Below, one piece after another: positions 17,002-35,460 of a stretch of DNA of 45,152 nt; positions within the stretch are counted from its first letter, which is position 1, and the number at the start of each line of letters is the position of its first letter. The translations under genes were made by a program, and so were the position numbers. The stretch is from Minisyncoccota bacterium. Its GTDB lineage: Bacteria > Patescibacteriota > Minisyncoccia > Phycocordibacterales > UBA5272. A model generated the notes under the pieces. It was not told the DNA's origin. It saw only the letters and a program-made list of their open reading frames with translations, and ran no database searches. Location of the stretch: assembly GCA_043736905.1 (NCBI GenBank), contig JAYTBQ010000011.1:1-45152 (forward strand). Direction: 5' to 3'.

Positions 17002-17003
17002 AT

Positions 17004-19128: not shown

Positions 19129-19133
19129 GTTAA

Positions 19134-19916
19134 TTATTTAGACTTAAGTGTTTGCCATGCCTTATCAAAATCTGCATTCGTCTCAATAGTACGCTGACTA
19201 AAAAGTTTTGCTTCAAGGGTTGCAGGCTGAATTGTAACGATGTTAGCGCCTGCTGCAAAAGCATCACCAATCTGACCTACATTTCTGATGCTACCGACAA
19301 CAAGCTTAGGAACAGAGTATCCGCCTTTCTCTAAAAATTCTACAATTGCTTGAGTAATTTTAGAGGGATGACTATTAACCTCCGCAGGTATTCCCATAAT
19401 CTCATTATTCTTAATAAACTCTTTATCAGATCGATATTTCTGATGATCCTCAATACTACGAGCCCAGAAGAGGCTAATAAATGAAGGTGACGGATGATTG
19501 CGAATAGCAAGAGCAGCGATAACAAGCTGCTCATAGGTCATCATTGCGGTTACGTTTACTGGAATTTTTAAATCTCCTAGTTTCTTAATAACAATAAGAC
19601 TTTTAATATCTCCTGGTATAAGTGGGACTTTTACGACAATATTATCTCCAAGTTCTCTGTACTTCTTTGCTTCACTAATCATTTCTTCAACAGAAGCTGT
19701 ACTATCACTTAGTTCAATCGAGACAGGTTTACCTTTCATGATTTTACAGATAGCCTTAATCGTAGGCTTGAGCTGCTTAAGTGTAATTCCGTCCTTAAGC
19801 ATAATACTCTGATTAGTTGTAACACCATCAATGATGCCTGTCTTGCTCCATTTTTCAATCTCTTTAATGCTTGACGAATCCAAAAAAATACTACGATTAA
19901 AATCTAATTTTTTCAT
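19134..19916 (-). CDS. transaldolase / fructose-6-phosphate aldolase family protein (TalC/FSA-like)
   Basis: FLDSSSIKEIEKW, IDGVTTNQS (family GVTTNPS), VVKVP (Schiff-base Lys context). The ORF-track start at 19952 is TTG; ATG at 19916 (MKKLDFNRSIFLDSS) is preferred. Confidence 0.75.
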   Translation of the reverse strand: MKKLDFNRSIFLDSSSIKEIEKWSKTGIIDGVTTNQSIMLKDGITLKQLKPTIKAICKIMKGKPVSIELSDSTASVEEMISEAKKYRELGDNIVVKVPLIPGDIKSLIVIKKLGDLKIPVNVTAMMTYEQLVIAALAIRNHPSPSFISLFWARSIEDHQKYRSDKEFIKNNEIMGIPAEVNSHPSKITQAIVEFLEKGGYSVPKLVVGSIRNVGQIGDAFAAGANIVTIQPATLEAKLFSQRTIETNADFDKAWQTLKSK

Positions 19917-20012
19917 TTTGTTGATTAGTGTGTATCTTAATATATAAAGCAATGATAACCACGTTCTTATAGTATACTACAAAAATCACAACAACAAATT
20001 TGCTTGATATTC

Positions 20013-21344
20013 ATGAAAAAAGCCCTATTTTTAGACCGAGATGGTATCATAAATCAACTTGTTAAAGATTCCTATGGGATCTTAAAATCACCAGGAAACA
20101 GAGATTCTGTCCGTTTAATGGATGGGATTGTGCAAATAATTCGATGGGCAAATAATAAAAATATCCCTACTATTGAAATCACAAATCAGCCCGATGTAGC
20201 TAAGGGTACACTTACTTTGGAAGAGCTAGATAGTATTGAGGAACAGATTCATTGCTTATTAAAAAGTGAAGGGGCTCATATTGATTATTCTTATAGATGT
20301 CTTCACCATATAAACGCAGATATACCTATGTATAAAAAGATATGCTCATGCAGAAAACCAGAGCCAGGGATGCTTCTACAGGCAAGCAAGGATCACTCAA
20401 TAGATCTTTCAAAAAGTTTTTTCCTCGGAGACAACTTAACTGATATCGAGGCCGGTTATACAGCTGGATGTAAAACAATACTCTTTCCGTATAACAAACA
20501 TCCAAACGACACCCCTGAGAGACTTAAAAAAAATAAAGCATACTGTTCTACAAAAATCATTAACTCATTAAATGAAGTGGTGCCATTTCTTAGTTCTGAA
20601 TGGAGTATTTCTGAGAAACTTATAGCAATAATTGTTGCAGGAGGAAGGGGTGAAAGATTAAGACCTCTTACAGAATCAGTCCCAAAACCGATGGTTCAGG
20701 TTGGAGGAAAACCTATTCTATTACATACAATTGAATTACTTAAAAGTTACGGGGTGCGTGATTTTGTACTTGCGCTATGTTATCTCCCTGAGGTGATTAA
20801 AGAATATTTTGGTGATGGCTCTCATTTTGGTGTATCAATTAGATATACATTTGAGGACCCTCTTCATCCACTCGGAACAGCGGGGGCAATAGTTCCAGCA
20901 AAACCCTTCATTCATTCTACATTTATTGTGACATACGCAGATATTATAAGAGAAATGGATATTCTAAAAATGATCCAGTTTCATAAAGAGAACAAAAGTA
21001 CCGCGACACTCCACGCATATAACAATGTGAGTAGTACTTTTAAAAGTACTCTCATTTTTAATGAGGATAAACGATTACTTACTTTTACTGAAAATGAAAG
21101 TAAAGAACAAAGAAATGATAGAGATATCTGGTCAAATGGTTCATTGTATATCTTTGAGCCGGGTATTTTTAAGTATATCCACAATAAAAAAAAGACTGAT
21201 TTTGCAAAAGATGTTTTTCAAAAAATGCTAACTGAGGGAGAAAACATTTCTATCTTCCAAACAAAGGATCAGTATTTTATCGATATAGGTACGATTGATA
21301 AACTTGAGCAAGCAGAAAAACACCACACTAACTATAAGAGCTGA
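20013..21344 (+). CDS. bifunctional D,D-heptose 1,7-bisphosphate phosphatase (GmhB, HAD) / D-glycero-alpha-D-manno-heptose 1-phosphate guanylyltransferase (HddC-like) fusion
   Basis: N-terminal half: FLDRDGIIN, CSCRKPEPGML, GDNLTDIEAG (GmhB/HisB-type HAD). C-terminal half: IIVAGGRGERLRPLTESVPKPMVQVGGKPIL (sugar-1-P nucleotidyltransferase). ATG 20013 is preferred over TTG 20004. Confidence 0.8.
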   Translation: MKKALFLDRDGIINQLVKDSYGILKSPGNRDSVRLMDGIVQIIRWANNKNIPTIEITNQPDVAKGTLTLEELDSIEEQIHCLLKSEGAHIDYSYRCLHHINADIPMYKKICSCRKPEPGMLLQASKDHSIDLSKSFFLGDNLTDIEAGYTAGCKTILFPYNKHPNDTPERLKKNKAYCSTKIINSLNEVVPFLSSEWSISEKLIAIIVAGGRGERLRPLTESVPKPMVQVGGKPILLHTIELLKSYGVRDFVLALCYLPEVIKEYFGDGSHFGVSIRYTFEDPLHPLGTAGAIVPAKPFIHSTFIVTYADIIREMDILKMIQFHKENKSTATLHAYNNVSSTFKSTLIFNEDKRLLTFTENESKEQRNDRDIWSNGSLYIFEPGIFKYIHNKKKTDFAKDVFQKMLTEGENISIFQTKDQYFIDIGTIDKLEQAEKHHTNYKS

Positions 21345-21356
21345 ACCCTGTAATGA

Positions 21357-22061
21357 TTACTTCAATCTAGGATGTGTTGCAAGGAGATGCCAAACAACCG
21401 CCTGGAAAGCTTCAGCAATTGGAGTAATAAACGCCGCTTCACCAACAGGAACCAGAATTGATGTCGTTGCAACCTTTCTTGTATATCCACCATCACGACT
21501 AACAATACCTAAAATAGGAGTACCTAACTCCTTTGCATATTGCAATGCTTTTACAATATTTGTGCTAACATTTTTTTCAACATTACCACCTCCTACAGAT
21601 AATACAAAAATACCATCATTAGCAGTTAAGTTACTAACCTTTAACCAATTACTAAATATAGTATCCCATCCATCATCATTTGCTCGTGCTGTAAGCTCAG
21701 AAACGTTATCAGTAGGTGCGTAAGATTCAATATTTGCAATTTTACGAAAATCGTTAACGGCATGTGAACAATTCCCTGCTGAACCTCCGATACCGAGCAT
21801 GAATAACCTTCCTTTTCGCTTTTTAAGATTAGCTAACTGAGACAATGTTTCATCGATCTCATCAAGATTAAGCGCCTCAGTAACACTTCGTACGTGATTG
21901 AAATAATGTGCTGTATACTCACTTGCCTCTTTACGTTTTTTTTCTTCAAGGAGAAGAGCAATTGCTTCGTCAAGATCTTTCACACTTCCTTGATTTGCGA
22001 TTTTCTTTAAATAGTCTAGCTTATTTCCCTGTTCATTGTTTCTTGCTGTGTTTTGTTCCAT
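21357..22061 (-). CDS. gmhA: sedoheptulose-7-phosphate isomerase (SIS domain, GmhA-like) with N-terminal extension
   Basis: 234 aa. LFMLGIGGSAGNCSHAVNDFRK, LSVGGGN. Confidence 0.8.
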   Translation of the reverse strand: MEQNTARNNEQGNKLDYLKKIANQGSVKDLDEAIALLLEEKKRKEASEYTAHYFNHVRSVTEALNLDEIDETLSQLANLKKRKGRLFMLGIGGSAGNCSHAVNDFRKIANIESYAPTDNVSELTARANDDGWDTIFSNWLKVSNLTANDGIFVLSVGGGNVEKNVSTNIVKALQYAKELGTPILGIVSRDGGYTRKVATTSILVPVGEAAFITPIAEAFQAVVWHLLATHPRLK

Positions 22062-22069
22062 ATCTGATG

Positions 22070-23107
22070 TTAAAAATTAATAAGCACTCTACTTCCTTCA
22101 AAACTAAACCTTACACCCTTCTCCTCTAGGCCAAGCTCTTTCATTTTTTTTCTAAAATCTTTTTTATTTTCTTTTACATAAAAGACAAACCATCCTCCAC
22201 CCCCTGCACCCATAATCTTTCCGCCTAACGCCCCCATCTTCATTGCTTCAGAGTACCAGTGATCAATCTGCGGATTAGATACTTTATCTGACAACGTTTT
22301 TTTTATTCTCCAGTGTTCATCAAAAGTTTTACCGAAACTATCGACATCTCCAGACAAAAGATATTTTTTTGCTTTCTGTCCTAGTTTTTTTATGTCATCC
22401 AATGCTTTTATTTTTTGTACAGTAGTATTATTTTTTTGATCAGCAAGCGCAACCCCTGCATCTCGATACATTCCAGTTCTAAAGTAGAGAAGATTCGACT
22501 CAAGCTCTGCAATTGTATGGAGTGGGATATCAAGTACTTCAGCTGTCACATTACCCTTAGTATCTCTTTCGAAATACTGAATCCCTCCTAGTGCAACAAT
22601 GTACTGATCCTGAGGACCAATGAAATCTCTTTTTAATTTAACACGTTCAATATAAAACGCCTTTTCACCAAGTTGCTCTTTAGAGACTGATTCATTTTTA
22701 TAACAATACAGCGCGTTTAATAGACCAACTTCAAGTGCGCCTGAACCTCCAAGACCGGAACGACCAGAGACTTCAGAAGTAATACTTACACTAATCCCTT
22801 TCTTAACACCTGTATACTCCATACAGGCTTTCACGTACGGATTAGGTATTTTTGTATATGAATCACCTTGCACAGCTTCTTCTCCGTATGAATAACCAAC
22901 AAAATTAGGATCCTCTGTTTTAGTTAATGTGACAACTAGATATCGATTAATTGTTGCACTAATCCATGCTCCGCCTTTCATATTACTGTACCAATCAACA
23001 TCAGTCCCTCCACCGGCAAGGGTTATGCGCATGGGTGTCTCTGTAATAATAATTGCTCGCGCTTGCCTGTTAGGATTTTCTTGTTTTTTTTGAATTAGCT
23101 TTGGCAT
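22070..23107 (-). CDS. hddA: GHMP-family sugar kinase, D-glycero-alpha-D-manno-heptose 7-phosphate kinase (HddA-like)
   Basis: 345 aa. PMRITLAGGGTDVDWY, SGLGGSGALEVG (GHMP motif II), GAGGGGWF. Confidence 0.8.
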   Translation of the reverse strand: MPKLIQKKQENPNRQARAIIITETPMRITLAGGGTDVDWYSNMKGGAWISATINRYLVVTLTKTEDPNFVGYSYGEEAVQGDSYTKIPNPYVKACMEYTGVKKGISVSITSEVSGRSGLGGSGALEVGLLNALYCYKNESVSKEQLGEKAFYIERVKLKRDFIGPQDQYIVALGGIQYFERDTKGNVTAEVLDIPLHTIAELESNLLYFRTGMYRDAGVALADQKNNTTVQKIKALDDIKKLGQKAKKYLLSGDVDSFGKTFDEHWRIKKTLSDKVSNPQIDHWYSEAMKMGALGGKIMGAGGGGWFVFYVKENKKDFRKKMKELGLEEKGVRFSFEGSRVLINF

Positions 23108-23163
23108 TCAGGTAATTTTAACGTATACAGTTTTTAAACACAACAAAAATTTTATACAAAAAG

Positions 23164-24417
23164 TCAATCTTTACTATCTAAAAATCTATTTGAATATAAA
23201 AGTGCCGCCATAGTTGAATAGGCTACAACGGTTGCAAGAGAAACACCAGCTGAACCAAAGTGAGGATATAATAGTATAATTAAACTAATATTAATAATAA
23301 GTCCAAAGATATAGACTACTGATTGTTTGAATTGACGCTGTGTAGCACTATAAATTGAGAAGTAATGAACACAAAGAAACATTCCCGGAATAGATAATGC
23401 ATATACCTGGAGAATAGGTACAGCTTCTTTAAATGAATCTCCATATAAAAGATGAATAAGAAATGGGGCGAAAACAATAATCACAAGGGCAGCGAAAATT
23501 CCTGAGAGGAGATATGTTCGAAAGATAATGTTTAGAGATTTATGCGAACCCTCTTCATTATTACGCACAAAAGAAGCAATTCGAGAAACTAAACTTATAT
23601 GGAGAATACTAATAAAAAAATTGGGTATCTCTGCTATTTTAACTGCCGAAACATAAATACCAAGTGTGTGTGCATTACTTATAGCAGCTAAGATAAGTTG
23701 GTCAACTCTTAAGATAAGTTGCCAAAGTATTAGAACGATAACATGCATTTTTATAGACCATAAAACAGAAAAGGTACTCTGTAGTGTTGGGAAAGGTGTC
23801 TTTGAAAATTCTAAACGGATACTTTTATTTTTTATAAATGAAAAGAAAATAATCACTGCGAACAAAACACCTTCAATTGATGAAACTATAACAAAAGAAA
23901 GTAATGGTGCTTTTAAAAAAACAAGTGTTGCCTTTGCTAAAAAAGCAGCACCTGATGCAAGTATCTGGAAAAAAGCAACTCTTTTTGCTTGCTGTGTAAC
24001 AACCGCATATACTGAAAATCCACTAACTGAACCAAGAACAAATGGGATAAAAACAATTGTAGCGTACAGTGCAACATCGTACTGTAACAACATCCAAGCA
24101 AGCCCAATACCAAAACATGTTATGAAACTTGCAATAATAATCTTATGTCCTGTAAATTTTTTTAATTCAGAAATCTTATTATCACTTTTAGCAATATTCC
24201 AAGTAAAATAAACATCGAGACCTGTTAGCACGGTACTAAAAACTAAGAGATAATTTTGGACAAAACTGTAGATTCCTAGATTTGTAGGCCCAAAGTATCG
24301 AGAAGTTAATAAAACACCAAGAAACGTAAATATTTGGATGAAAAATTGACCAAGAGTGTACCAAGACATCTCTTTTAAAATTGGTCTATTTAAAAAATTC
24401 TTTGTAAGTAACAGCAT
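23164..24417 (-). CDS. wzx: Wzx-type oligosaccharide flippase (MOP superfamily polysaccharide biosynthesis protein)
   Basis: 417 aa with roughly 12 hydrophobic helices throughout, positioned within the glycan operon. Confidence 0.75.
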   Translation of the reverse strand: MLLLTKNFLNRPILKEMSWYTLGQFFIQIFTFLGVLLTSRYFGPTNLGIYSFVQNYLLVFSTVLTGLDVYFTWNIAKSDNKISELKKFTGHKIIIASFITCFGIGLAWMLLQYDVALYATIVFIPFVLGSVSGFSVYAVVTQQAKRVAFFQILASGAAFLAKATLVFLKAPLLSFVIVSSIEGVLFAVIIFFSFIKNKSIRLEFSKTPFPTLQSTFSVLWSIKMHVIVLILWQLILRVDQLILAAISNAHTLGIYVSAVKIAEIPNFFISILHISLVSRIASFVRNNEEGSHKSLNIIFRTYLLSGIFAALVIIVFAPFLIHLLYGDSFKEAVPILQVYALSIPGMFLCVHYFSIYSATQRQFKQSVVYIFGLIINISLIILLYPHFGSAGVSLATVVAYSTMAALLYSNRFLDSKD

Positions 24418-24426
24418 GACAAATAA

Positions 24427-24432
24427 AGTATA
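24427..24432 (-). promoter_or_regulatory. putative -10 box TATACT 9 nt upstream of ATG 24417
   Basis: The minus strand reads ctataTATACTttatttgtcATG. Confidence 0.3.
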
Positions 24433-24494
24433 TATAGGGAGTATGTTACTTATAATACTATCACAATCTGCAACTTTTACAGGGAGAGGGTCTA

Positions 24495-25619
24495 TTACTT
24501 TAGGACATCGTTTTGATCCTGAGTAGACCTAAAAGCTTTTTCAAGTACTGACATATTTACTATTTTCGCCGTTATATCATCCTTTTTACTTATTGAAATA
24601 AGGGTACGAACCATTACTTTTTCACTGGTATGATATTCATCAATTGTTTCACTGTCATTGGAATTAAGAGATTGTAATGAATAAAAATCGAAAACTTTGA
24701 ATCCATACTTAGCGAAAATAGGATTTGTTTTCTCATATACTTTTTGCATATACCTATATTGAGTATGTTTTTTATATTCATTTTCAATACTCTTTGGAGT
24801 TGGAGGGACATAACCAACAACATATATATTCTCATCACGGCAATACTGTAAAAAAGCATCCAATTCTGTCAAAGCCTCAGAAGAAAAAGCACCCTCAGTA
24901 TTCTGGGTTTTTTTTGACGCAATAAACTGTACAGCTCTTTCAATTTTCTTATCACGCTCACCCTCATCTTCATACTGCCTTCCGTAATGGTAACTACCAT
25001 CTCTTCTTGTTCCGCTTCCGGTAATTCTTGCTTGCAACCCCATTGTTTCAAAAGTGTCTTTTGGGTGAATAATATCTTTTACAGAAAATTTATGGAGCAG
25101 GTAATCACTATACACCTTTGACCAGTTTCTACTTATCATATTTCCCACCCTTGTTACTTCACTTATACTCTCAAACTTTTGAGGATTAAATCTGGTATCA
25201 ACTACTAAACTCGAATCGAAATGTAATGGCTCAACAGTAATATAAATTACCTTCGGCTTTATTTTAGTCTGTATAAGAAACTTTCTAAATGACGCTATCT
25301 CACTTACTGTACCCCCTGCGTTATAGAACCTAACCGATGGTTTAAAAAATTCCTTCCTCATTGTAAGAATTTTCGAATTTCCAAGCGCTAAGACATCAGG
25401 ATTGATACGGCTTGCCATCTGGCTTTTATGATACAAGGTTTGGTCACTATATGCAGGACCGTAGACTAATTCCTTTGTCTTATTTTCTTCTAATTGTTTT
25501 TTAAGTATGACAGAAAAAGGTACAAACTCACCAGAAGTGTAGTAAATAAATATCGGAAAACTAAGAAGGGCACAAAAAGGTAGTATTAGAAGTATACTTT
25601 TTTTAAATAAAATATTCAT
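24495..25619 (-). CDS. membrane-anchored DltD/AlgJ/AlgX-like (SGNH-like) acyl-transfer protein, partner of the MBOAT
   Basis: 374 aa from ATG 25619, 4 nt after the MBOAT stop. N-terminal TM helix (ILLILPFCALLSFPIFIYY). LALGNSK (candidate nucleophile Ser) and TIDEYHTSEK (D-x-x-H). Its position immediately downstream of the MBOAT matches the dltB-dltD / algI-algJ arrangement. Confidence 0.6.
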   Translation of the reverse strand: MNILFKKSILLILPFCALLSFPIFIYYTSGEFVPFSVILKKQLEENKTKELVYGPAYSDQTLYHKSQMASRINPDVLALGNSKILTMRKEFFKPSVRFYNAGGTVSEIASFRKFLIQTKIKPKVIYITVEPLHFDSSLVVDTRFNPQKFESISEVTRVGNMISRNWSKVYSDYLLHKFSVKDIIHPKDTFETMGLQARITGSGTRRDGSYHYGRQYEDEGERDKKIERAVQFIASKKTQNTEGAFSSEALTELDAFLQYCRDENIYVVGYVPPTPKSIENEYKKHTQYRYMQKVYEKTNPIFAKYGFKVFDFYSLQSLNSNDSETIDEYHTSEKVMVRTLISISKKDDITAKIVNMSVLEKAFRSTQDQNDVLK

Positions 25620-25623
25620 ACAT

Positions 25624-27114
25624 TTAGAACTGGAAATAAATAAATTCTTGAGCACCAAATATACCAAAGCTTAGAATAGAAAGAATAAGACCGTAATATA
25701 CAAACCAGCGAATGGCAAAGTGATATCTAGCCAAGAACAACCAAAAAGATATCCGTCTTTCTATAAGGTCATAAATAAATACTATCAAAGATGATACGAT
25801 TGCAATAATAACTTCAGATTTAAGAATCAGACCATTAAGTGAAAGGAGATTCTTCCACGTTTGATATTTATATGAATTACTTAAAAAGTCAAATAGACCA
25901 TTCCCTGTGTGAGTAATAATATATATAGCTTGATCAATAGATGTTGCTCTAAAAAAAACCCAGCCAATACACACTAGTGAGAAAGTAAGTAGTACATTAC
26001 AGAATGTACTTAGGCGCTTATTAAGCCCACCGTATACATATATCTTAGGTAAAGGAAACTTTATTCTTTTTCTTATTTCAGCAAAAATAATATACATTCC
26101 AAAAATTCCACCCATGCATACATATGTCCATGACGCACCATGCCATAAACCGCTCACTAAAAACGTAACCAGAGTTACTCCATATAATTTTATTCGACTT
26201 GGCTTTTTTATAGACAGTGCAAGTGGATAATAAAGATAATCTCTTAACCATGTTGAGAGGGAAATGTGCCAACGTCTCCAAAACTCTGCAATTGATTTTG
26301 AAAAATATGGCCGCTCAAAGTTTTCCATAAGCGAAATACCCATTACTTTTGATGCACCTAATGCTATATCTGAATAACCAGAAAAATCACAATAGAGCTG
26401 AATCGCAAAAAAAACCATCGCCATTATGAGAGTTGGTCCATCAAAGGCTTGAGGGTTTGCGTACACCGCATTTACAATAATTGCAAGATTGTCAGCAACA
26501 ACAGTTTTTTTGAAAAATCCCCACGCCATTCTCTTCAAACCAAGTGTGACACCCTCCGGATCAAAGGCATGCGGTGCATGAAACTGATGCAGTAGATTCT
26601 GAGGTCGTTCGATTGGTCCCGCCACAAGTTGAGGATAGTACATAACATAAAGAGCATAAATACCTAAATGCTTCTCTGCTTTTTGTTTCTTTCGGTAAAC
26701 TTCGAACACATAGCTAAGCGCCTGAAACGTATGGAATGATAGACCGATAGGTAAAATGATACTTAATAACGAAAGTGAGTAATTAAAATTAAGCGCCTGC
26801 GCTATTGCATTTATATTCTCAGCAAAAAAGTTAAAATATTTAAAGAAGCCAAGAACTGCTATGTTAGAAATAATACAAGCAAGAAAAATACCCTTCCTGG
26901 CTCGTTCGCTGTAAGAAGAGTCCAGCAAAATACCTGCTACATAATTAACTACTATCGTTGCAAATAATATAAGAATATACTTTGGCACAAAGGCCATATA
27001 AAAATATGAACTTGCAACAAGAAGCATCATCCATCTATATCTATGGGGTAAAAGATAATACAAGGCAGAAACAACAATGAAATAAATAATAAAAGAATAA
27101 GAATTAAAAAGCAT
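25624..27114 (-). CDS. MBOAT-family membrane-bound O-acyltransferase (DltB/AlgI-like)
   Basis: 496 aa. FHTFQALSYVFEVYR, YYPQLVAGPIERP, FWRRWHISLSTWLRDYLYYPL, SGLWHGASW (conserved His). Confidence 0.92.
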   Translation of the reverse strand: MLFNSYSFIIYFIVVSALYYLLPHRYRWMMLLVASSYFYMAFVPKYILILFATIVVNYVAGILLDSSYSERARKGIFLACIISNIAVLGFFKYFNFFAENINAIAQALNFNYSLSLLSIILPIGLSFHTFQALSYVFEVYRKKQKAEKHLGIYALYVMYYPQLVAGPIERPQNLLHQFHAPHAFDPEGVTLGLKRMAWGFFKKTVVADNLAIIVNAVYANPQAFDGPTLIMAMVFFAIQLYCDFSGYSDIALGASKVMGISLMENFERPYFSKSIAEFWRRWHISLSTWLRDYLYYPLALSIKKPSRIKLYGVTLVTFLVSGLWHGASWTYVCMGGIFGMYIIFAEIRKRIKFPLPKIYVYGGLNKRLSTFCNVLLTFSLVCIGWVFFRATSIDQAIYIITHTGNGLFDFLSNSYKYQTWKNLLSLNGLILKSEVIIAIVSSLIVFIYDLIERRISFWLFLARYHFAIRWFVYYGLILSILSFGIFGAQEFIYFQF

Positions 27115-27132
27115 ACTGTTTATATATTTAAT

Positions 27133-27885
27133 CTATTCATACTCTGGGGCTAGTAGCAAGGTTAACTCTGTTTCTTTTGTGATCTGTGAAGGTTGACAAA
27201 GTTCCACTATACTTGTTGCAAGATTTTCTCGGGTAAGAAGTACCTTAGAAACGCTTTTTTGGCGAATAATTTCAACAAAAGCTTGAGGTATACCGCTATT
27301 CATCCCTCCTTCCATAAACCCCGGAGCAACAGAGTATACACGAACACCGGACGGAGCAAGCTCATGCTTAAGCATAACAAGAACCCCCTGAAGGGCGTAC
27401 TTAGCAGGAGTGTAAGCACCTAACGACTGAGCAGCAGCCTCAACAACAACACCAGCAGTCGTAACCCCAATAAGCACACCGTCACCTCTTTCTTTCATTT
27501 TTTTTCCACATGAAGTGAGGAGATTGAAACCTCCAAGTGCTGTTGAAGTAAATTGCAATAACATCTCTTCCTGTGTTGTTTGAATAATTTTTTTTCGCAA
27601 AGGTTTTCCACCTGCCATATGGATACACGCATAAATTATTCCTTCACTTTCCTCTATATCTCTGACTGTCTGATTAACAGAAATTTCGTCATCAAGATGA
27701 CAACAATATGTGGCATGCCCCTCTCCTGGCAATGTCTCTATTATTTTTTTTGCCACCATTAATGAAGAGTTCCTGTGCACCATAATTATTTTCATCCCCT
27801 CTTCTGCAAGTTTTTTTACAAGAAAGGAACCGGCATAGCCAGTACCCCCAGAAATTACAACTATTTTTTTATCGAGAAGTTTCAT
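27133..27885 (-). CDS. SDR-family reductase (FabG/ketoreductase-like)
   Basis: 250 aa. VVISGGTGYAGSFLV and YTPAKYAL (YxxxK). Confidence 0.75.
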   Translation of the reverse strand: MKLLDKKIVVISGGTGYAGSFLVKKLAEEGMKIIMVHRNSSLMVAKKIIETLPGEGHATYCCHLDDEISVNQTVRDIEESEGIIYACIHMAGGKPLRKKIIQTTQEEMLLQFTSTALGGFNLLTSCGKKMKERGDGVLIGVTTAGVVVEAAAQSLGAYTPAKYALQGVLVMLKHELAPSGVRVYSVAPGFMEGGMNSGIPQAFVEIIRQKSVSKVLLTRENLATSIVELCQPSQITKETELTLLLAPEYE

Positions 27886-27898
27886 ACTAATAATTTAT

Positions 27899-28315
27899 TT
27901 ATATTATTTTAACAACGGCACTACCTATCACAACAATAGCATTTTCTTTTTTTATGGTCGTAGTAATTGTTACGAGGGAAGTTGCAACACTTTTGGAAAT
28001 AACCACCCCTTCAACATCAACAGTTTCCCCAATATATACAGGACTTTTAAATGAAAGCTCTTGTTTAAGATATAAACACCTTCTCCCTGGTAGATGCATA
28101 CCAACAAGTTTTGAACAGAGGGAACCAAGAAACATCCCATGGACAACCCTCTTTCCAAAGAAAGTTGTTGCAGCGTAGGCGTCATCCATATGGAGAGGAT
28201 TGAAATCACCACTAAGCTCTGCAAAAATTTGGACATCACTCTCTGATATTTCACGGCTAAATACAGCACGAGAGCCTATCTCTATATTGTTAATGGAAAA
28301 ATCACTAGGAAGCAT
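27899..28315 (-). CDS. MaoC-like hotdog-fold dehydratase
   Basis: 138 aa. FAELSGDFNPLHMDDAYAATTFFGKRVVHGMFL (MaoC hydratase motif). Confidence 0.85.
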   Translation of the reverse strand: MLPSDFSINNIEIGSRAVFSREISESDVQIFAELSGDFNPLHMDDAYAATTFFGKRVVHGMFLGSLCSKLVGMHLPGRRCLYLKQELSFKSPVYIGETVDVEGVVISKSVATSLVTITTTIKKENAIVVIGSAVVKII

Positions 28316-28329
28316 GTATATACCAATTA

Positions 28330-28548
28330 TTATTTACCTTCAACAACTTTACGAATATCACCAAGCGTTTGTGCATTCATTACTTGATCCATACTAAAGG
28401 ATATATTGAATTCTTTCTCTAATTCTGCAACAAAAAGTAAATAATTCATTGAATCCCACTCAGGGATATCTTTTGACGAAAGCGAATCATTGACAGTGCT
28501 TTCATTAATTAAAAAAAGTTCTGATACTATTTGATTAAATGTTTTCAT
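28330..28548 (-). CDS. acyl/peptidyl carrier protein (DltC-sized, 72 aa)
   Basis: PEWDSMNYLLFVAELEKEF, a DS(M/L) phosphopantetheine-attachment serine at the start of helix 2. The start overlaps the FkbH-like stop by 14 nt. Confidence 0.85.
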   Translation of the reverse strand: MKTFNQIVSELFLINESTVNDSLSSKDIPEWDSMNYLLFVAELEKEFNISFSMDQVMNAQTLGDIRKVVEGK

Positions 28549-29587
28549 AGTTATGTGCTGTAATCCATTTTGGACTATCTATTGATAAGGGAACGTTATA
28601 GGAATAATTAATAAAGTGCTTTTCAATAAAATTTTTTGCGGGAGCATTTTTTGGAGTTGCTTCATAATCAATCGTTAATGTAGTAACCCCTGACAATTTT
28701 GCTTCTCGTAACAGTTCTGCAAAAAATGCTTCTTCAACATCTCTACCGAAAACCCTGCAACTCATAAGCAGAGATGAGATGTGCCAGGAAGTTTTACTTT
28801 TCTCAATTACAGAAAAAATAATAACTCCGTAATCTCCAAATATGTCATGCAATTTACCGTAATAAACTGAATGGGTCCTACTTTCTATTAACATAGCAAT
28901 ATCATTCTCAGAAAGAGGGTTTTTTGCTATATTAAATTGATTAGTTTTTTCTGTCAGCTGAGCAAGTCTAGCAAGACATGTGTCGTCATCTTTACGCACA
29001 ACTAACTCTAGCGAAAGTGACGCGAGAAAATCTTCTTTGGTTGAGCAAGTCTTTTCAACCTCTTTACGAAGTCGCTCTGTCACATAAAGATTTCCCCTCA
29101 TTTGATCTTCATCAGTAATAACTGTTGTTTCAAAATAAGTAAGAGTGTTAAAAAACTTTGTATACTCTTTTGGATCTTTTGGAAGTTCAGGAACAGCAAC
29201 CTCTGGATGAAGAGTTCGAACAAGTTCTCTATTTGTCTCATCATCATCAAGAAAGACAATTGAATCAATTCCAATATTTAATTCTTGAGCAATCTCTTTA
29301 ATATTTTCAGCTTTATCTTTCCAATTGATACGAAAAGCAGCAAAATGGTGCTCTTTCAAAATCATGTTAGGATGTCTTCTTATCACAGAAAAGGCATCCT
29401 CTTCGTTGTTTCTACTATTTATTGCCAAAATTACACCTTTATTATGGACGTCCAAAATAGCTTGTTGGAAAGCGATAAAACTATTTCCTGGAGAACTAAG
29501 ACCAAGATGGATACCCTCGAATCCATCCTCTCCAACAACGCCACCCCATAATGTATTATCCAGATCAAGTACAAGACATTTCTTCAT
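28535..29587 (-). CDS. FkbH-like protein (HAD superfamily subfamily IIIC phosphatase + C-terminal acyltransferase-like domain)
   Basis: 350 aa. LVLDLDNTLWGG (DxDxT), LAINSRNNEEDA, VFLDDDETN, C-terminal LLMSCRVFGRDVEEAF. Confidence 0.85.
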   Translation of the reverse strand: MKKCLVLDLDNTLWGGVVGEDGFEGIHLGLSSPGNSFIAFQQAILDVHNKGVILAINSRNNEEDAFSVIRRHPNMILKEHHFAAFRINWKDKAENIKEIAQELNIGIDSIVFLDDDETNRELVRTLHPEVAVPELPKDPKEYTKFFNTLTYFETTVITDEDQMRGNLYVTERLRKEVEKTCSTKEDFLASLSLELVVRKDDDTCLARLAQLTEKTNQFNIAKNPLSENDIAMLIESRTHSVYYGKLHDIFGDYGVIIFSVIEKSKTSWHISSLLMSCRVFGRDVEEAFFAELLREAKLSGVTTLTIDYEATPKNAPAKNFIEKHFINYSYNVPLSIDSPKWITAHNYENI

Positions 29588-29609
29588 TATTCAGATAGTA
29601 ACGCAAAAA

Positions 29610-29966
29610 TTACCCGATAGCAATGGCGATAGCTATATCATTTGTATGAGTTATTGAAATTGAAACAGGAAGAGCTGTTCCGTTCTGACAAGCATAAGGA
29701 GCTCCTTCTTTTGTGTGACATATCTCAATGGAGATTACAGGAAATAATGTAGTCCCGAGAGCCTTGCTTACAGCCTCTTTAGCAGCATATGTTCCAGCAA
29801 AATGAACATCACTTTTTTTAAACGACGAAGAATATTCTATTTCGGAATCCATGAAAAGCTTCTTCATTGCATGAAGATTCCCAGAGGAAATAATTTTTTT
29901 TACTCTTTTTATAGTAACTGCATCAATTCCTACTTTTGGTATTTTTTTGCTAATGTGTAAAGACAT
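29610..29966 (-). CDS. acpS: holo-[acyl-carrier-protein] synthase (AcpS-type 4'-phosphopantetheinyl transferase)
   Basis: 118 aa. VGIDAVTIKRV, FAGTYAAKEAVSKALGT, ISITHT. Confidence 0.85.
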   Translation of the reverse strand: MSLHISKKIPKVGIDAVTIKRVKKIISSGNLHAMKKLFMDSEIEYSSSFKKSDVHFAGTYAAKEAVSKALGTTLFPVISIEICHTKEGAPYACQNGTALPVSISITHTNDIAIAIAIG

Positions 29967-30075
29967 ACTACAGATATTTACTCATAATGATACTTTTTTT
30001 GAAATTGATATGCAAACTAACTCATAATATATATTTATTTTAATAACAACAGTATGAAAATTTATAAAATACTTG

Positions 30076-30081
30076 TATAAT
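30076..30081 (+). promoter_or_regulatory. putative -10 box TATAAT 13 nt upstream of gmd ATG
   Basis: acttgTATAATaaaatgactttctATG in the divergent intergenic region 29967-30094. No SD motif. Confidence 0.3.
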
Positions 30082-30094
30082 AAAATGACTTTCT

Positions 30095-31162
30095 ATGAAA
30101 AAAGCTTTAATTACTGGGATTACTGGACAAGACGGAGCATACCTTGCAAAATTTCTTCTTAGTATAGGATATGAAGTACATGGGATAAAGAGAAGGACTT
30201 CTCTTTTTAATACTGCTCGTATCGATGACATTTATGAGGACAAGCACAATAGTCCCCGGTTTGTTCTTCACTATGGTGATCTTACTGACACGAGTAGTCT
30301 TATTCACATTGTTCAACAAGTTCAGCCCGATGAAATTTATAACCTTGGAGCTCAATCACATGTAAAAGTCTCATTTGAGAACCCAGAATATACTGCTGAT
30401 GTGGATGCTCTTGGTGTCCTTCGTCTCCTTGAAGCAATTAGAATATGTGGACTTGAAAAGAAAACAAAATTCTATCAAGCCTCATCCTCAGAAATGTTTG
30501 GTAAGGTTGCTGACATACCACAACATGAACTTACTCCCTTTCATCCTCGTAGCCCTTACGGTGTTGCTAAACTTTTTGGCTATTGGATTGTAAAAAACTA
30601 TAGAGAGAGCTACGGTATGTTTGCGGCGAATGGCATCTTATTTAATCACGAAAGTCCTCATCGTGGAGAGACCTTTGTCACAAGAAAAATAACACGTGCT
30701 GTTGCTCGTATTCACCATGATCTTGAAGAGATGTTATATCTCGGCAACCTTGATGCGAAGAGAGACTGGGGTCATGCAAAAGATTATGTTGAAGCAATGT
30801 GGAAGATTCTACAGCACGATACGCCGGATGATTTTGTTATTGCCACAGGAGAACAACATAGTGTCCGAGACTTTGTAAGTTGGGCATTTGAACATGTCGG
30901 ACGAACACTTGAATGGAAACATTCTGGAATTGACGAAGTGGGTACCGAAAAGGCAACAGGAATTATACGAGTTCGAGTAGATAGTGTCTACTATAGGCCT
31001 GCGGAAGTTGAAACACTTCTTGGTGAAGCAAAAAAGGCAAGAGAAGCTCTTAAGTGGGATCCTCAGATTAGTACTCAGGACCTGATGAAAGAAATGCTGG
31101 AGAATGATCTACAGATAGCTGAGCGAGAAAAATATCTTAAGAACGGTGGATTTAAAGCATAA
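30095..31162 (+). CDS. gmd: GDP-mannose 4,6-dehydratase (or GDP-heptose 4,6-dehydratase, DmhA-like)
   Basis: 355 aa. [68 protein letters not shown]. Confidence 0.92.
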
Positions 31163-32162: not shown

Positions 32163-33488
32163 CTATTTTCCAAATAGTGATTTAAAAAAACTAGCAAGTC
32201 TAATATCCTTTTTTTGACTATGACTCGTCTGTGTTGAAGTAGCTATGACTTTTGTTTTTTGTTGTATGACTTCTTTTACAACAGGCTGCTTTGTTGCTAC
32301 GTTTTGCTTAATTTTTAACGGTGTAAATTTTGTGATACTTTTTACAGTGTCTTTTGTACTACTAGGTACTATTTCTGTAGTGGTTCCTTGAATAATTCGT
32401 ATCACTTCTTCCATTGTAGGAAATAGTAATTTAATGACGGTACTCGTTGAAATTGTAGTACTTGCAAACCCCATAGCAATTCCAGAAAAATGCGTAGTGC
32501 CAGACCCTAGTAGAGTATTTTTTGGGAATGAAAAAAGTGCTCCATCAAGAGACAGTTTCCAGCCAGAAATTTCTAAATCGTAACTATTTGGGTTGGTAAT
32601 GTCAATAAAGTTTCCATACTTCCCTTGCTCGATTGGAGCGATTGCAATATCTGGAGCAACAACGTTAACAATCATTCTTCCAGTTCCAAGTACAAGACCA
32701 TTACCTCCTTCAATCTGAAGAATATACCTTCCTGGGTACAAATATCTGTATAATGTTGTACTTCCTGTCCCCTGACCCCCTTCACCAAATGACCACAGAT
32801 AGGACATATTTTCTAAAGGTTTACCTGCTCGAGTCATCCCTTGTGTAGAAAATAAAGCAGGAGCTCCAGCTACCACTGTCTTTTCAAAAGGAAGGAATAA
32901 AACTATATCTGCTGAAGGCGAAGACATTTGTGAAAGAGTCACCTGATTTCCTGATTGAATAGTTGTTGTTGATGTAGAGTCAGTTCCCGAAGTTGACCTC
33001 ACATTTTCCGCTCCAGGTGTAGGAACACCTGTCACAAAGACACCCTCTATGAGTGAATACGTGCTTCCTTCCTTTGCTGCCGTATACGAGGGAATACTGT
33101 CAGTCACAGAGCCTTGTAGATTGAGACTAATTGAAGTGATGCCTGCATTAACAAGACTGATGGAACTCTTTAAAAGTAGCCCATTGTAGCTAGGATAATC
33201 AAGTAAAAATTTTGTCTGTCCGGAAACTGTTGAAGCTATAATTCCAAAAGAATGAGGGGTAAGTGTAGTCCCCCCTGATACTGGTGTTGTAACAATATGA
33301 GCTCCACCCTTAATCGACACCGTCACCCCAGAAATATCAATATCACTATCTGTAGGATTATATACCTCAATCCATTCACGACCACCATCATCCCCTATTG
33401 GATTAGACATTACTTCACTAAGTACTAAAGCATACGAAAAAAAGAATGAATTAATTATGAGAAGTGAAATAATGATAATGCTTCTCAT
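32163..33488 (-). CDS. secreted/anchored protein with lamin-tail (LTD) domains and a PKD-like domain
   Basis: N-terminal signal/anchor (IIIISLLIINSFFF). LTD motif EVMSNPIGDDGGREWIEVYNPT. PKD-like YLWSFGEGGQGTG...YPGRYILQIEG. Second LTD-like stretch NFIDITNPNSYDLEISGWKL. ATG 33488 is preferred over TTG 33494. Confidence 0.7.
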   Translation of the reverse strand: MRSIIIISLLIINSFFFSYALVLSEVMSNPIGDDGGREWIEVYNPTDSDIDISGVTVSIKGGAHIVTTPVSGGTTLTPHSFGIIASTVSGQTKFLLDYPSYNGLLLKSSISLVNAGITSISLNLQGSVTDSIPSYTAAKEGSTYSLIEGVFVTGVPTPGAENVRSTSGTDSTSTTTIQSGNQVTLSQMSSPSADIVLFLPFEKTVVAGAPALFSTQGMTRAGKPLENMSYLWSFGEGGQGTGSTTLYRYLYPGRYILQIEGGNGLVLGTGRMIVNVVAPDIAIAPIEQGKYGNFIDITNPNSYDLEISGWKLSLDGALFSFPKNTLLGSGTTHFSGIAMGFASTTISTSTVIKLLFPTMEEVIRIIQGTTTEIVPSSTKDTVKSITKFTPLKIKQNVATKQPVVKEVIQQKTKVIATSTQTSHSQKKDIRLASFFKSLFGK

Positions 33489-33494
33489 ACTCAA

Positions 33495-35366
33495 TTATTG
33501 ATCCTCAATTAACTTACGAAGAACATCTTCATCCACCTCCTTACGAACCTTAAGTTCGCGTTCTTCTCTTTCTAGTTTCTCTCCCCCATGATCGTGCATT
33601 GCTTTTGCAAGTGCATCCTTTAAGGACATTGCGGGCTTGTCATCAAATGTTGGGACAGACATGCCTTTTAGAAGACTTTCCTCCTTACTATCTCTTTCAT
33701 CTTGATGTGGTACGGAATATTGATCTACCTGCCTATGTATTACTTGTGGTGGCTTATGGAACTGTTCTTCTATTTTTCTGTTATCGGAATAAACACTGTC
33801 TCGCTCTGATTCTCTCCTAACAGGTTCCTCACGTCGTGGTTCCATCCTTTTCGGCGGGAGCGGTGTATCATTAGTTATCTTTCTCACCCTCAAATCTCGC
33901 TGCTCACGAGCTGGTTGTTGTGGTTGGCGATTAGTGTCCCTATTGTTAGAATATGGCTGCTGGTAGGCAGGTTTTGGCTGTTGTTGGTATGTTTTTTGCT
34001 CTATCTGTGGCTGAGAATATGCTTGTGGTGATATAGGATCCTTTTTCTTCTCTTCTTTTTGAATAGGTAGATAGAATGTGGCAATTTCTTCCTCGACAAC
34101 AAAACGGGGCTTTGCATATTCATTTCGTGTGTGAGTGATAACAGACTTAGCAAATGAGTGTGCAGGTTTTTGAATTGGGTCAAGGGTATGTGCAGAAAAA
34201 GGATTAGACCCAACCCCGTCAATCATAAGACGAAGATAAATTTGGTGTGCGGATAAGTTAACAAAATCATCCATAATAAAATATGGTGCAAATTCCTTTT
34301 CAAAGACTTCGGCGTCAGTTGCTCCAATACGAAATACTATCATTGTCCCTACGTTACCAAATACTGCCGACTTTACTTCATCGGTCATCTGCTCAACATA
34401 TTGATGAGCAACAGTAAGAGCCAACTTGTACTTACGAGCTTCTGAAAGAATACTTGCAAATGACTCGTTAGCAAAGTTCTGGAATTCGTCCACGTAGAAA
34501 TAAAAAGGTGGCAACTTCTCTGCAGCATATGGATCAATATCAGCACGTGACATTGCTGCTAGATAAATTTTGGTAATAAGAAGTGACCCAAGGAGGTTTG
34601 CATTTCCTTCACCAACTTTTCCTTTTGAAAGGTTAATGATAAGAATCTTTTTATTATCCATGAGCTCACGAATATTAAAAGATGTCTTCTGCTGGCCAAT
34701 GATATTTCTAATAAGTGGATTAGAAACAAACTGTCCAATCTTGTTCTGAATTCCTGGAGCAAGTTCTTGTGTTGTCTTCTCAGTATAGTTAGCATACTCG
34801 TTCATCCAAAAATCCTTTACTGTCGGATCAGTAACGTTGGCTACAATCTTCTTTCGATACTCTTTATCGAAAAGCATACGGTTAATACCAAGCAATGTCT
34901 GATTATCATTTTCAAGAAGCGCAAGAATGATGTAGTTAAGAACATACTCCATACGAGCACTAAAGGTTGCCTTACCGTCACCGTCAACAAAAATTTTCTT
35001 AAACGCCGACATCAAGCCATTTGCCACCAAATATCTCTTATCTGCTGGAACTTTTTCAAGCACATTAAGTCCAATAGGGTGATCATTATCAGATGGGGAA
35101 AAATATACCACATCTTTAATTCGAGACTCTGGAATATGATCGAGAAGCTTCTCTGCCATCGACCCGTGTGGATCAATAACACACAAACCCTCTCCATTGT
35201 TGATATCTTGAATGGCAAGATTTTCTAGAAGTGTTGACTTACCCATACCTGACTTACCAATTACATAGGTGTGCTTGGTTCTATCATTTTCTCGTATCCC
35301 AAAAGGGAGCTCCTTGTTACGAAAATCAACTTTTCCAATGTAGGTTACTTTTTGTTGATCTGACAT
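33495..35366 (-). CDS. soluble TraD/TraG/VirD4-like (type IV coupling protein-like) P-loop ATPase with long low-complexity C-terminal tail
   Basis: 623 aa from ATG 35366 (MSDQQKV). Walker A VIGKSGMGKST, VIDPHG, Walker B FYFYVDEFQNF, LTVAHQY. No N-terminal TM helices. The last ~170 aa are Q/P/R/E-rich. The 778-aa ORF-track version extends over the 3' end of the upstream gene and is rejected. Confidence 0.7.
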   Translation of the reverse strand: MSDQQKVTYIGKVDFRNKELPFGIRENDRTKHTYVIGKSGMGKSTLLENLAIQDINNGEGLCVIDPHGSMAEKLLDHIPESRIKDVVYFSPSDNDHPIGLNVLEKVPADKRYLVANGLMSAFKKIFVDGDGKATFSARMEYVLNYIILALLENDNQTLLGINRMLFDKEYRKKIVANVTDPTVKDFWMNEYANYTEKTTQELAPGIQNKIGQFVSNPLIRNIIGQQKTSFNIRELMDNKKILIINLSKGKVGEGNANLLGSLLITKIYLAAMSRADIDPYAAEKLPPFYFYVDEFQNFANESFASILSEARKYKLALTVAHQYVEQMTDEVKSAVFGNVGTMIVFRIGATDAEVFEKEFAPYFIMDDFVNLSAHQIYLRLMIDGVGSNPFSAHTLDPIQKPAHSFAKSVITHTRNEYAKPRFVVEEEIATFYLPIQKEEKKKDPISPQAYSQPQIEQKTYQQQPKPAYQQPYSNNRDTNRQPQQPAREQRDLRVRKITNDTPLPPKRMEPRREEPVRRESERDSVYSDNRKIEEQFHKPPQVIHRQVDQYSVPHQDERDSKEESLLKGMSVPTFDDKPAMSLKDALAKAMHDHGGEKLEREERELKVRKEVDEDVLRKLIEDQ

Positions 35367-35375
35367 TATGACGAA

Positions 35376-35381
35376 AGTATA
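35376..35381 (-). promoter_or_regulatory. putative -10 box TATACT 9 nt upstream of ATG 35366
   Basis: The minus strand reads gtTATACTttcgtcataATG. Confidence 0.3.
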
Positions 35382-35420
35382 ACAAACATGTTGGGAAAAA
35401 GTGAACGGAAAAGATGAGAC

Positions 35421-35457: not shown

Positions 35458-35460
35458 AGT

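Follow-up and report, generated by a model that had tools for sequence, protein, structure and literature searches.

The 45,152-nt contig JAYTBQ010000011.1 of a Minisyncoccota bacterium, taken over its whole length and called the window below, carries a tightly packed minus-strand operon whose seven genes encode an AcpS-type phosphopantetheinyl transferase, an FkbH-like protein, an acyl carrier protein (ACP), a MaoC-type dehydratase, an SDR reductase, an MBOAT (membrane-bound O-acyltransferase) and an N-anchored SGNH/DltD-like protein, here p7. Given the composition of this operon and its recurrence in other genomes, it probably specifies a carrier-protein-dependent transmembrane O-acylation of a surface glycan, in which FkbH supplies an acyl-ACP and the MBOAT-SGNH pair delivers the acyl group. 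Full-text literature searches that paired FkbH with MBOAT, polysaccharide, lactyl or HAD-IIIC turned up no account of an FkbH-to-MBOAT route, as the initial annotation of this DNA had supposed; the co-mentions of FkbH and MBOAT that they returned concern aeruginosin/suomilide peptides and are unrelated.

The seven-gene operon and its products

Ten minus-strand genes run head-to-tail from 29966 down to 21357 in the open reading frame (ORF) listing of 19-33 kb, which reproduced exactly the coordinates initially given. The first seven, from AcpS to p7, are separated by 4-22 nt (AcpS/FkbH 22 nt, ACP/MaoC 14, MaoC/SDR 13, SDR/MBOAT 18, and MBOAT/p7 4, counting from the p7 ATG at 25619), apart from a 14-nt overlap at the FkbH/ACP junction. 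Downstream, 77 nt lie between p7 and a Wzx-type flippase gene, by computed spacings the widest gap, as had been noted, followed by 56 nt up to a GHMP kinase gene and 8 nt up to a SIS isomerase gene. The features of the operon are as follows.

29610..29966, minus strand: AcpS-type 4'-phosphopantetheinyl transferase, 118 aa (PF01648, 59 bits; TIGR00556, 62 bits)
28535..29587, minus strand: short-form FkbH (HAD-IIIC phosphatase plus glyceryl transferase), 350 aa (TIGR01686, 292 bits)
28330..28548, minus strand: acyl carrier protein, 72 aa, Ser in WDSMNYL (PF00550, 27.8 bits, cutoff 20.8)
27899..28315, minus strand: MaoC-type (R)-hydratase/dehydratase hotdog, 138 aa, SGDFNPLH hydratase-2 motif (PF01575, 79 bits)
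27133..27885, minus strand: SDR/ketoreductase, 250 aa, YxxxK motif (adh_short_C2, 87 bits; KR, 33 bits)
25624..27114, minus strand: MBOAT, 496 aa, RWH and WHG histidines conserved (PF03062, 92.8 bits)
25627..25644, minus strand: codons for the C-terminal FIYFQF hexapeptide, which fits the FXYXXF acyl-shuttle motif (read from sequence)
24495..25619, minus strand: p7, predicted N-anchored SGNH/DltD-like transferase, 374 aa, Ser82 and Asp327-x-x-His330 (model and alignment)

The family calls of the initial annotation held up in profile-HMM searches, with ACPS, FkbH, PP-binding, MaoC, SDR, MBOAT and Wzx models all matched, and the motifs it had listed (DLDNTLWGG, LMSCRVFGR, EWDSMNYL, LGNSK, there shortened to GNSK, and DEYH) are all present in the translations. 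The window contains a single ACP, a single MBOAT and a single p7 (stop-to-stop ORFs plus Pfam scans of the other large ORFs). Its reported lack of an adenylation-domain ligase was borne out: no stop-to-stop ORF has such a homolog, and Pfam scans of the operon and of the other large window ORFs gave no AMP-binding match. Nor is there another acyltransferase within the operon; the only other one in the window is a hexapeptide-repeat protein at 6688-7389, which lies 17 kb away and is not conserved with the cassette. A promoter/terminator scan of 21,000-30,400 gave counts within shuffle expectation, uninformative on transcription units, and Rfam and tRNA scans left the operon region empty, with tRNA-Ile at 44,007-44,080 as the only hit.

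The five genes from AcpS to SDR form what we call the cassette, with FkbH at its core. The accepted role of FkbH domains is to charge carrier proteins with glycerate taken from 1,3-bisphosphoglycerate (PMC13122637; PMC5318452). The window protein, whose 63-65% identity to proteins from Saccharibacteria/Patescibacteria metagenome-assembled genomes points, together with a GC content of ~35%, to a probable Patescibacteria source, matches TIGR01686 over model positions 3-317 of 323, with a curated cutoff of 146.65, and also the HAD-IIIC model; its N-terminal half matches a Bacteroides fragilis structure (BF1531, PDB 3slr; E 2e-44). In an alignment of 44 diverse homologs, D8 and D10 of the DxD motif and the S276-C277-R278 triplet are 100% invariant, so that the catalytic Asp and Cys residues singled out beforehand for checking (D8, D10, C277) are kept in 44/44. 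FkbH is thus predicted to be a glyceryl-ACP loader. The MaoC protein is most similar to the enoyl-CoA hydratase domain of PRK08190 (105 bits).

Gene order ties the remaining cassette members to FkbH. In a survey that started from FkbH, one genome per GTDB species yielded 42 loci, which were mapped by phmmer/HMM and Pfam and are cited, like further loci, by L numbers. ACP orthologs lie directly 3' of FkbH in nearly all loci, including most of the 42 genome loci, and the 14-nt FkbH/ACP overlap is kept in L001, L003 and L131. MaoC and SDR are fused into one protein in L029 and L037. AcpS, the presumed activator of the operon's carrier protein, opens the operon in L003, L008, L011, L012, L013, L014, L130 and L131. 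Operons that include it come from Patescibacteria, from a single Omnitrophota locus (L016) and from a handful of taxonomically unassigned metagenome loci; the Acidobacteriota and Proteobacteria loci do not encode it in the operon, a distribution that would fit hosts without a housekeeping AcpS. Patescibacteria are generally without fatty-acid synthesis, and would for that reason need an AcpS of the operon's own.

How does the MBOAT compare with its characterized relatives? MBOAT-SGNH systems are now split in two, with Dlt, which uses a carrier and DltX, on one side and fused-shuttle acetyl-CoA users on the other (PMC12148441). According to Anderson et al., DltB receives D-Ala from DltC and transfers it to a Tyr within the FXYXXF motif that the DltX microprotein carries, whereas all other bacterial MBOAT-SGNH MBOATs carry FXYXXF at their own C-terminus, on two extra helices, and are described as acetyl-CoA users without a carrier protein (PMC12148441). 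The best PDB matches of the window MBOAT are DltB (8jem, 6bug; E ~7e-29), the only solved structures among its relatives, and the RWH and WHG motifs align to DltB. Yet the DltB equivalog model scores 164 bits, under its cutoff of 375, and the alignment to DltB stops at residue 389 of 496, beyond which lies a C-terminal extension of ~107 residues. The Tyr of the FIYFQF sequence at its end is predicted to be the acyl-carrying residue. The shuttle motif recurs in 18 of the 19 full-length MBOAT ORFs listed as linked to the cassette, L032 (FVYCQF) being reported as the exception, and essentially all MBOAT relatives share this C-terminal ending. A gene for a DltX microprotein was not found, and the 4-22 nt operon gaps leave no room for one. 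Judged from sequence, then, the window MBOAT is PatA/AlgI-type rather than DltB-type in architecture, yet placed in an ACP operon. Of the initial 'Dlt-like' label, the ACP-operon setting and the DltB match remain, while the fused FIYFQF and the lack of DltX speak against it. From an abstract perspective, the window operon and its relatives look like a hybrid, in which a fused-shuttle MBOAT is supplied by a phosphopantetheinyl transferase, FkbH, an ACP and tailoring enzymes.

The placement of p7 relies on structure prediction, Foldseek and an iterated profile, because sequence searches alone gave nothing: p7 matched no entry of Pfam (the DltD model PF04914 included), NCBIfam or the PDB sequences. 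G80, S82, D327, H330 and E333 are invariant in a 16-sequence family alignment that reaches down to 26% identity. The AlphaFold2 model built from this alignment (pLDDT 89, pTM 0.88) predicts an N-terminal anchor in helix 2-29, and Foldseek against the PDB ranks DltD first (6o93, 3bma, 6pfx, 7dxm; probability 0.96-0.99), ahead of SGNH hydrolases and PatB. The matches to DltD are remote, with E ~5e-3 and TM ~0.37. Among the loci retrieved, the iterated profile grew to 70 proteins, and the genes of 60 of these come directly downstream of an MBOAT gene; some MBOAT partners found in this way weakly match GDSL, DUF1574, ALGX or DltD models. An exhaustive profile search returned 3,181 cluster representatives at E <=1e-3, and 1,047 at E <=1e-30. 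An apparent restriction of p7 to a tiny family of 19 proteins, as obtained by word-indexed search, was discarded as a sensitivity artefact in view of these numbers. We conclude that p7 belongs, as far as profiles and model predict, to a large family of SGNH-like MBOAT partners that has gone unannotated, and that it is only remotely related to DltD. The earlier DltD-type reading thus survives in part: DltD is the top fold match and the triad is invariant, but the relationship is distant.

Distribution of the cassette and of MBOAT-SGNH pairs

Is the association of the cassette with an MBOAT and its partner peculiar to this window? Two points on which the initial annotation had made its reading depend, the conservation of the seven-gene neighbourhood and the co-occurrence of MBOAT/SGNH pairs with FkbH/ACP genes elsewhere, both turned out in its favour, since the neighbourhood is kept in Patescibacteria loci, its components recur in other phyla, and the pairs are found beside FkbH/ACP genes repeatedly, in several phyla and in differing gene orders. 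The order of the seven genes is the same as in the window in L003, L008, L011 and L131, L008 and L011 being from Saccharibacteria. In L001 all seven are present, but a second MBOAT/p7-like pair separates AcpS from FkbH. Further Patescibacteria arrangements include a convergent MBOAT and two SGNH-like genes next to the cassette in L014 (Adlerbacteria) and the truncated locus L010. L012 combines the cassette with an MBOAT and a 331-aa partner, and L009 reads FkbH-ACP-MaoC-MBOAT-partner. Two MBOAT(-SGNH) sets stand beside one FkbH/ACP cassette at L001:2233-10376 and L096:1254-9624; such double sets might serve two acceptors of one acyl-ACP, or else one of the pairs might use another donor.

Outside Patescibacteria, the same functions are found in other combinations. 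L029 (Omnitrophica) has FkbH, a MaoC-SDR fusion, an MBOAT and a GDSL protein; L037 (Caldimonas) has FkbH, ACP, MBOAT and a MaoC-SDR fusion; and L046 (Acidobacteriota, Terracidiphilus) has MBOAT, an SGNH-like protein, FkbH and ACP. In L017 (Acidobacteriota, Acidobacteriaceae), FkbH, ACP and GT2 genes are followed ~7 kb further by an MBOAT with a DUF1574/GDSL partner. In L032 (Omnitrophota, 425-6319) and L033 (Planctomycetales, 9044-14989), FkbH follows a small IDSL-motif protein and precedes a TylF-like O-methyltransferase, an MBOAT and a GDSL domain fused to TPR repeats, a gene set that suggests an O-methylglyceroyl donor; the small protein is likely a divergent ACP, although it has no Pfam match. 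The metagenome locus L105 holds FkbH, ACP and MBOAT, and the ACP gene abuts the MBOAT gene in L087 and L105, at distances of 9 and 30 nt. Altogether, at least five named phyla have FkbH, ACP, MBOAT and SGNH partner side by side, in permuted order. Between loader and MBOAT there may be no tailoring genes, MaoC alone, MaoC and SDR as separate or fused proteins, or an O-methyltransferase.

Locus L013 (Parcubacteria GW2011_GWA1_56_13, 9618-15554) has the same AcpS-FkbH-ACP-MaoC-SDR cassette with no MBOAT/p7 after SDR. In their place are an AAC(3)-family (Antibiotic_NAT) acyltransferase, a DUF4910/DUF2172/HTH_47 protein and a PseB/CapD-like dehydratase, and this version of the cassette probably constitutes a cytoplasmic N-acylation route that draws on the same acyl-ACP. 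A soluble transferase occupying the MBOAT/p7 slot implies that this slot belongs to the consumer of the acyl-ACP. Together with the permuted gene order and the varying tailoring genes, this replacement argues for functional coupling as opposed to chance adjacency.

A second survey started from the MBOAT. Among its 80 closest relatives in JGI metagenomes (38-54% identity), 11 have FkbH/ACP in the available flank. In a neighbour-joining tree of 100 MBOATs, the window protein falls into a 15-leaf clade in which the cassette is present in all 14 leaves with usable flank, the fifteenth being a 2.5-kb contig. Two further clade members, L130 (57%) and L131 (66%), also carry it, which brings the count to 16/16 informative members. 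Cassette-linked MBOATs outside this clade form small separate clades or single leaves. The global list of MBOAT homologs contains 17 matches at 57-71% identity, and then a plateau of thousands at ~52%. The plateau proteins of the cultured Adhaeribacter arboris (DUF1574 partner) and Clostridium sp. BNL1100 (unannotated neighbours) have no cassette, and, as a control, carrier, adenylating and FkbH families are absent from the 25 most frequent Pfam families in the 102 genes that lie upstream of cassette-free MBOAT relatives. Only certain MBOAT clades thus show the link to a carrier protein. The context in the window's clade argues against an acyl-CoA donor there, while the cassette-free relatives fit the classical acyl-CoA picture.

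A related arrangement occurs in a model organism. A tblastn search of FkbH against plasmids led to a module on pSymB of Sinorhizobium meliloti:

L134:3879-9077 (SM11 pSmeSM11d); 1021 pSymB NC_003078.1:631205-636404; also L138 (CP140955.1): S. meliloti module

It comprises in a row an MBOAT (577 aa, C-terminal FLYQGF), a p7-like SGNH protein (409 aa, GGS and DPGH motifs), an ACP with a WDSL motif and a long-form FkbH with DLDNT and SCRV. The module is present at >=95% identity in 39 complete S. meliloti pSymB records, strain 1021 among them, with rkpR and kpsF, genes of capsule export, ~4 kb downstream of it. The label 'TonB-dependent receptor' given to its SGNH-like gene looks mistaken. FkbH loci on Methylosinus (pOB3b3) and Paroceanicella plasmids showed polyketide synthase (PKS) or MprF context and no MBOAT, the former with KAS III and a type I PKS.

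One further locus touches on carrier use in general. L005 (799-9348) encodes a distant pair of p7 and fused-shuttle MBOAT (FIYFAF), with an 83-aa PP-binding protein immediately upstream of the MBOAT. An AMP-binding and PP-binding pair, methyltransferases and a radical-SAM/SPASM enzyme are found in the vicinity, and the locus looks like a Dlt-style adenylation loader feeding a non-DltB MBOAT.

The proposed route and its alternatives

How might an acyl group travel from the cassette to the cell surface? We envision that the AcpS of the operon would turn the 72-aa ACP into its holo form, and that FkbH, as its conserved residues suggest, would dephosphorylate 1,3-bisphosphoglycerate, hold the glycerate on Cys277 and hand it over to the holo-ACP. 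By the logic of β-hydroxy elimination, MaoC might strip off the 3-OH to give an enol-pyruvoyl/pyruvoyl-ACP, whose 2-oxo group the SDR would then reduce to yield lactyl-ACP, in analogy with FkbH-DH-KR starter modules. The MBOAT would draw the acyl group off the phosphopantetheine thioester at its cytoplasmic tunnel, with gene linkage pointing to the ACP as the donor, and its catalytic His might serve to acylate the Tyr of its own FIYFQF motif at the outer face, as conceived for PatA/DltX. From there, the anchored p7 would receive the acyl group on Ser82 of its Ser/Asp/His triad and would esterify a hydroxyl of the heptose/fucose-type glycan that the surrounding locus presumably makes and flips. 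Loci without MaoC/SDR would transfer glyceroyl, and loci with the TylF-like methyltransferase O-methylglyceroyl. We infer both the acyl group (lactyl, pyruvoyl or glyceroyl) and the glycan acceptor. CoA and holo-ACP share the phosphopantetheine thioester, and a switch of donor may plausibly need only surface changes.

This route would combine features of several known systems. With Dlt it would share an acyl group held as a phosphopantetheine thioester on a small dedicated carrier, an MBOAT crossing, the FXYXXF Tyr as predicted shuttle and an N-anchored Ser/His/Asp SGNH-like protein that finishes the transfer; if the window product is lactyl, it would be the hydroxy analogue of alanyl. Unlike Dlt, the window has FkbH as a loader in place of the adenylating DltA, the shuttle motif is fused to the MBOAT instead of residing in the DltX microprotein, the acyl group would be tailored on the carrier by a dehydratase and a reductase, and the setting is a Wzx-type glycan locus rather than teichoic acid synthesis. 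The pair resembles PatA/PatB of peptidoglycan, AlgI/AlgJ/AlgX of alginate and WssH/WssI of cellulose, which have an MBOAT of ~480-500 aa with a C-terminal FXYXXF extension, and, as in the PatAB/AlgIJ type, an adjacent gene encodes an extracytoplasmic SGNH-like partner with catalytic Ser/His/Asp. These systems are described as using acetyl-CoA and no carrier (PMC12148441), whereas here, in discrete clades, phosphopantetheinyl transferase, loader, ACP and tailoring enzymes are operonic with the pair. As in FkbH/OzmB-type loaders and FkbH-DH-KR modules, FkbH with its DxD and SCR-Cys motifs is encoded beside a carrier protein. FkbH-DH-KR modules form lactate starters in PKSs of the FR901464 and bryostatin type, and as in those modules a dehydratase and a ketoreductase could turn glyceryl-ACP into lactyl-ACP. 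Unlike in PKS lactate starter modules, the window proteins are discrete, the dehydratase is a MaoC hotdog instead of a PKS DH domain, there is no ketosynthase, and the acyl group is predicted to end up on a glycan rather than to start a chain.

The strongest alternative, which we nevertheless consider unlikely, is that two separate systems happen to be neighbours: the MBOAT and p7 would form an acetyl-CoA-dependent O-acetyltransferase of the PatA/PatB or AlgI/AlgJ type, and the cassette would feed a cytoplasmic transferase, for instance in amino-sugar N-acylation. Several observations weigh in this direction and against the proposed route. The fused FXYXXF architecture is tied in the literature to acyl-CoA donors (PMC12148441), and MBOATs of ~50-52% identity are mostly cassette-free. 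A comparison of cassette-linked MBOATs from 11 lineages with 41 unlinked ones found no convergent residue signature specific for the donor, but a few conservative differences only, none of which included the Patescibacteria clade. Most FkbH loci outside Patescibacteria lack an MBOAT within 10 kb, as do about 25 long-form FkbH loci that have an ACP, and in L013 a soluble transferase can be served by the cassette. An AT3 acyltransferase adjoins AcpS in L001 and L131. Moreover, much of the 16/16 signal comes from one Patescibacteria clade, and the synteny may in part be inherited. There is also a precedent in Campylobacter jejuni, where the FkbH-domain gene cj1302 lies, as in the window, inside a glycan-modification locus, that for flagellar glycosylation (PMC7099621), with no MBOAT/SGNH pair reported there and cytoplasmic N-acylation presumed. 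The L013 variant, with its AAC(3)-like transferase, is the closer analogue of this locus. We assume that the C. jejuni locus also holds ACP genes and that the nonulosonic acids of flagellin bear glyceroyl-type N-acyl groups.

On the other side, there is no soluble acyltransferase in the window operon or in the conserved blocks of L003, L008 and L011 that the cassette could serve, and the cassette stays next to the MBOAT in every informative member of the clade. At least five other lineages have the four components side by side, in a permuted order and with tailoring genes that are fused or exchanged, and the ACP and MBOAT genes abut in L087 and L105. These observations are better accommodated by a supply of acyl-ACP to the MBOAT than by two independent systems.

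A quite improbable variant leaves the supply from cassette to MBOAT/p7 intact and changes its end: either a different component of the envelope (a teichoic-acid-like polymer, a lipid or a surface protein, for example) would be the acceptor, or the acyl group would stay glyceroyl or pyruvoyl. In its favour, Dlt acts on lipoteichoic acid and not on a Wzx product (PMC12148441), and the MBOAT-DUF1574 pairs of Adhaeribacter and Clostridium lie outside glycan loci. As to the acyl group, several loci have no tailoring genes, and in L009, L060, L066 and L130 MaoC has no adjacent SDR; a lactyl product would thus not be universal, a further point against the route in its full form. However, in the window, L001, L003 and L131 the module is surrounded by genes for Wzx, heptose, GDP-sugar and glycosyltransferase functions, the S. 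meliloti module is close to rkpR and kpsF, and MaoC plus SDR beside FkbH matches the logic of a glyceryl to pyruvoyl to lactyl conversion.

Finally, we regard it as very improbable that FkbH and ACP act in a small-molecule (polyketide- or lipid-like) pathway whose product the MBOAT acylates: many FkbH homologs do reside in PKS or nonribosomal peptide synthetase clusters, as in Methylosinus pOB3b3, and the MBOAT of the suomilide cluster acylates a glycosylated peptide, but the window and the orthologous loci have no ketosynthase, condensation or adenylation domain and the surrounding genes are exclusively devoted to glycan assembly. A PKS or lipid product was rejected for want of these three domains, and a methoxymalonyl-ACP pathway (FkbG/H/I/J/K) was rejected because the operon has no FkbI/FkbK-type genes, no acyl-CoA dehydrogenase and no 3HCDH.

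The surrounding glycan locus and implications

The operon is embedded in one large glycan locus, which spans 259-32,140 of the window. Immediately downstream of p7 are the following features.

23164..24417, minus strand: Wzx-type flippase, by context for export of a lipid-linked glycan repeat (PF01943, 38.5 bits)
21357..23107, minus strand: HddA-like GHMP kinase and GmhA-like SIS isomerase (NF049969, 157 bits, and TIGR00441, 49 bits, both below cutoffs)

Wzx is conserved near the module in L003 and L004, and the GHMP/SIS genes downstream of it in L001, L003 and L131; from their context, the latter would supply nucleotide-heptose for the same glycan. The locus further encodes a Wzy_C protein, GT11, GT2 and GT1 glycosyltransferases, three FkbM methyltransferases and one hexapeptide acyltransferase, as well as several epimerases/dehydratases, a UDP-sugar dehydrogenase, heptose-activation genes, a GDP-mannose dehydratase and a fucose-synthase-like gene. 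The FkbM-family genes (4995-5891, 10475-11368 and 14143-15054, plus strand) and the GT11 fucosyltransferase-like gene (2541-3413) suggest a heavily O-methylated glycan with fucose and heptose. A five-gene block at 15092-19952 (minus strand), which adjoins the heptose genes, encodes a transaldolase/FSA-like protein, an SDR, a UDP-glucose/GDP-mannose dehydrogenase, a GFO/MocA oxidoreductase and an epimerase. It is found in the same order in L001, agrees with those parts of it that L004 and L131 contain, and may represent an uncharacterised sugar-nucleotide pathway or a supply of sedoheptulose-7-phosphate. The 446-aa GmhB-like HAD phosphatase-nucleotidyltransferase fusion at 20004-21344 (plus strand) corresponds to two separate adjacent genes in L001, L003 and L131.

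Beyond the locus, at 32163-35831 (minus strand), a lamin-tail-domain (LTD) plus PKD surface protein adjoins a TrwB/VirD4-like coupling ATPase; in L003 and L131, too, an LTD/PKD protein borders the glycan locus. The VirD4-like ORF (33495-35831) and a DUF4015 ORF (35461-36663), both on the minus strand, overlap by ~370 nt, and the true start of the former is probably internal to the listed ORF. A 263-aa ORF at 40200-40991 (minus strand), between an enolase gene and a D-2-hydroxyacid dehydrogenase gene, partially matches the pyruvate kinase barrel (profile positions 174-328 of 328) and could be a truncated or split pyruvate kinase, or have a mis-assigned start.

What would the proposed route imply? 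As far as genes and conserved residues tell, its new element is likely to be the donor-supply module, added to an otherwise known MBOAT-SGNH transmembrane acylation. If this is true, the donor repertoire of bacterial MBOATs widens, and fused-shuttle MBOATs are not confined to acyl-CoA. Surface-glycan esters (glyceroyl, lactoyl and O-methylglyceroyl) would then be predicted whose biosynthetic genes we did not find described in the literature, an unrecognised family of glycan esters that would include a lactyl ester, the hydroxy analogue of D-alanyl. A function would also be assigned to the large unannotated SGNH-like family to which p7 is predicted to belong, with its 3,181 cluster representatives at E <=1e-3. 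The odds seem to us about even that we are dealing with a second widespread class of carrier-dependent acylation besides Dlt, in which FkbH-derived C3 acyl-ACPs serve PatA/AlgI-type MBOATs, with their own Tyr, and via SGNH partners the surface glycans of Patescibacteria, Omnitrophota, Planctomycetota, Acidobacteriota and Proteobacteria including S. meliloti, where the pSymB module makes the hypothesis directly testable in a model organism. The proposed acylation would also be relevant to the cell surface in Patescibacteria, which depend on surface contacts for their episymbiotic lifestyle.

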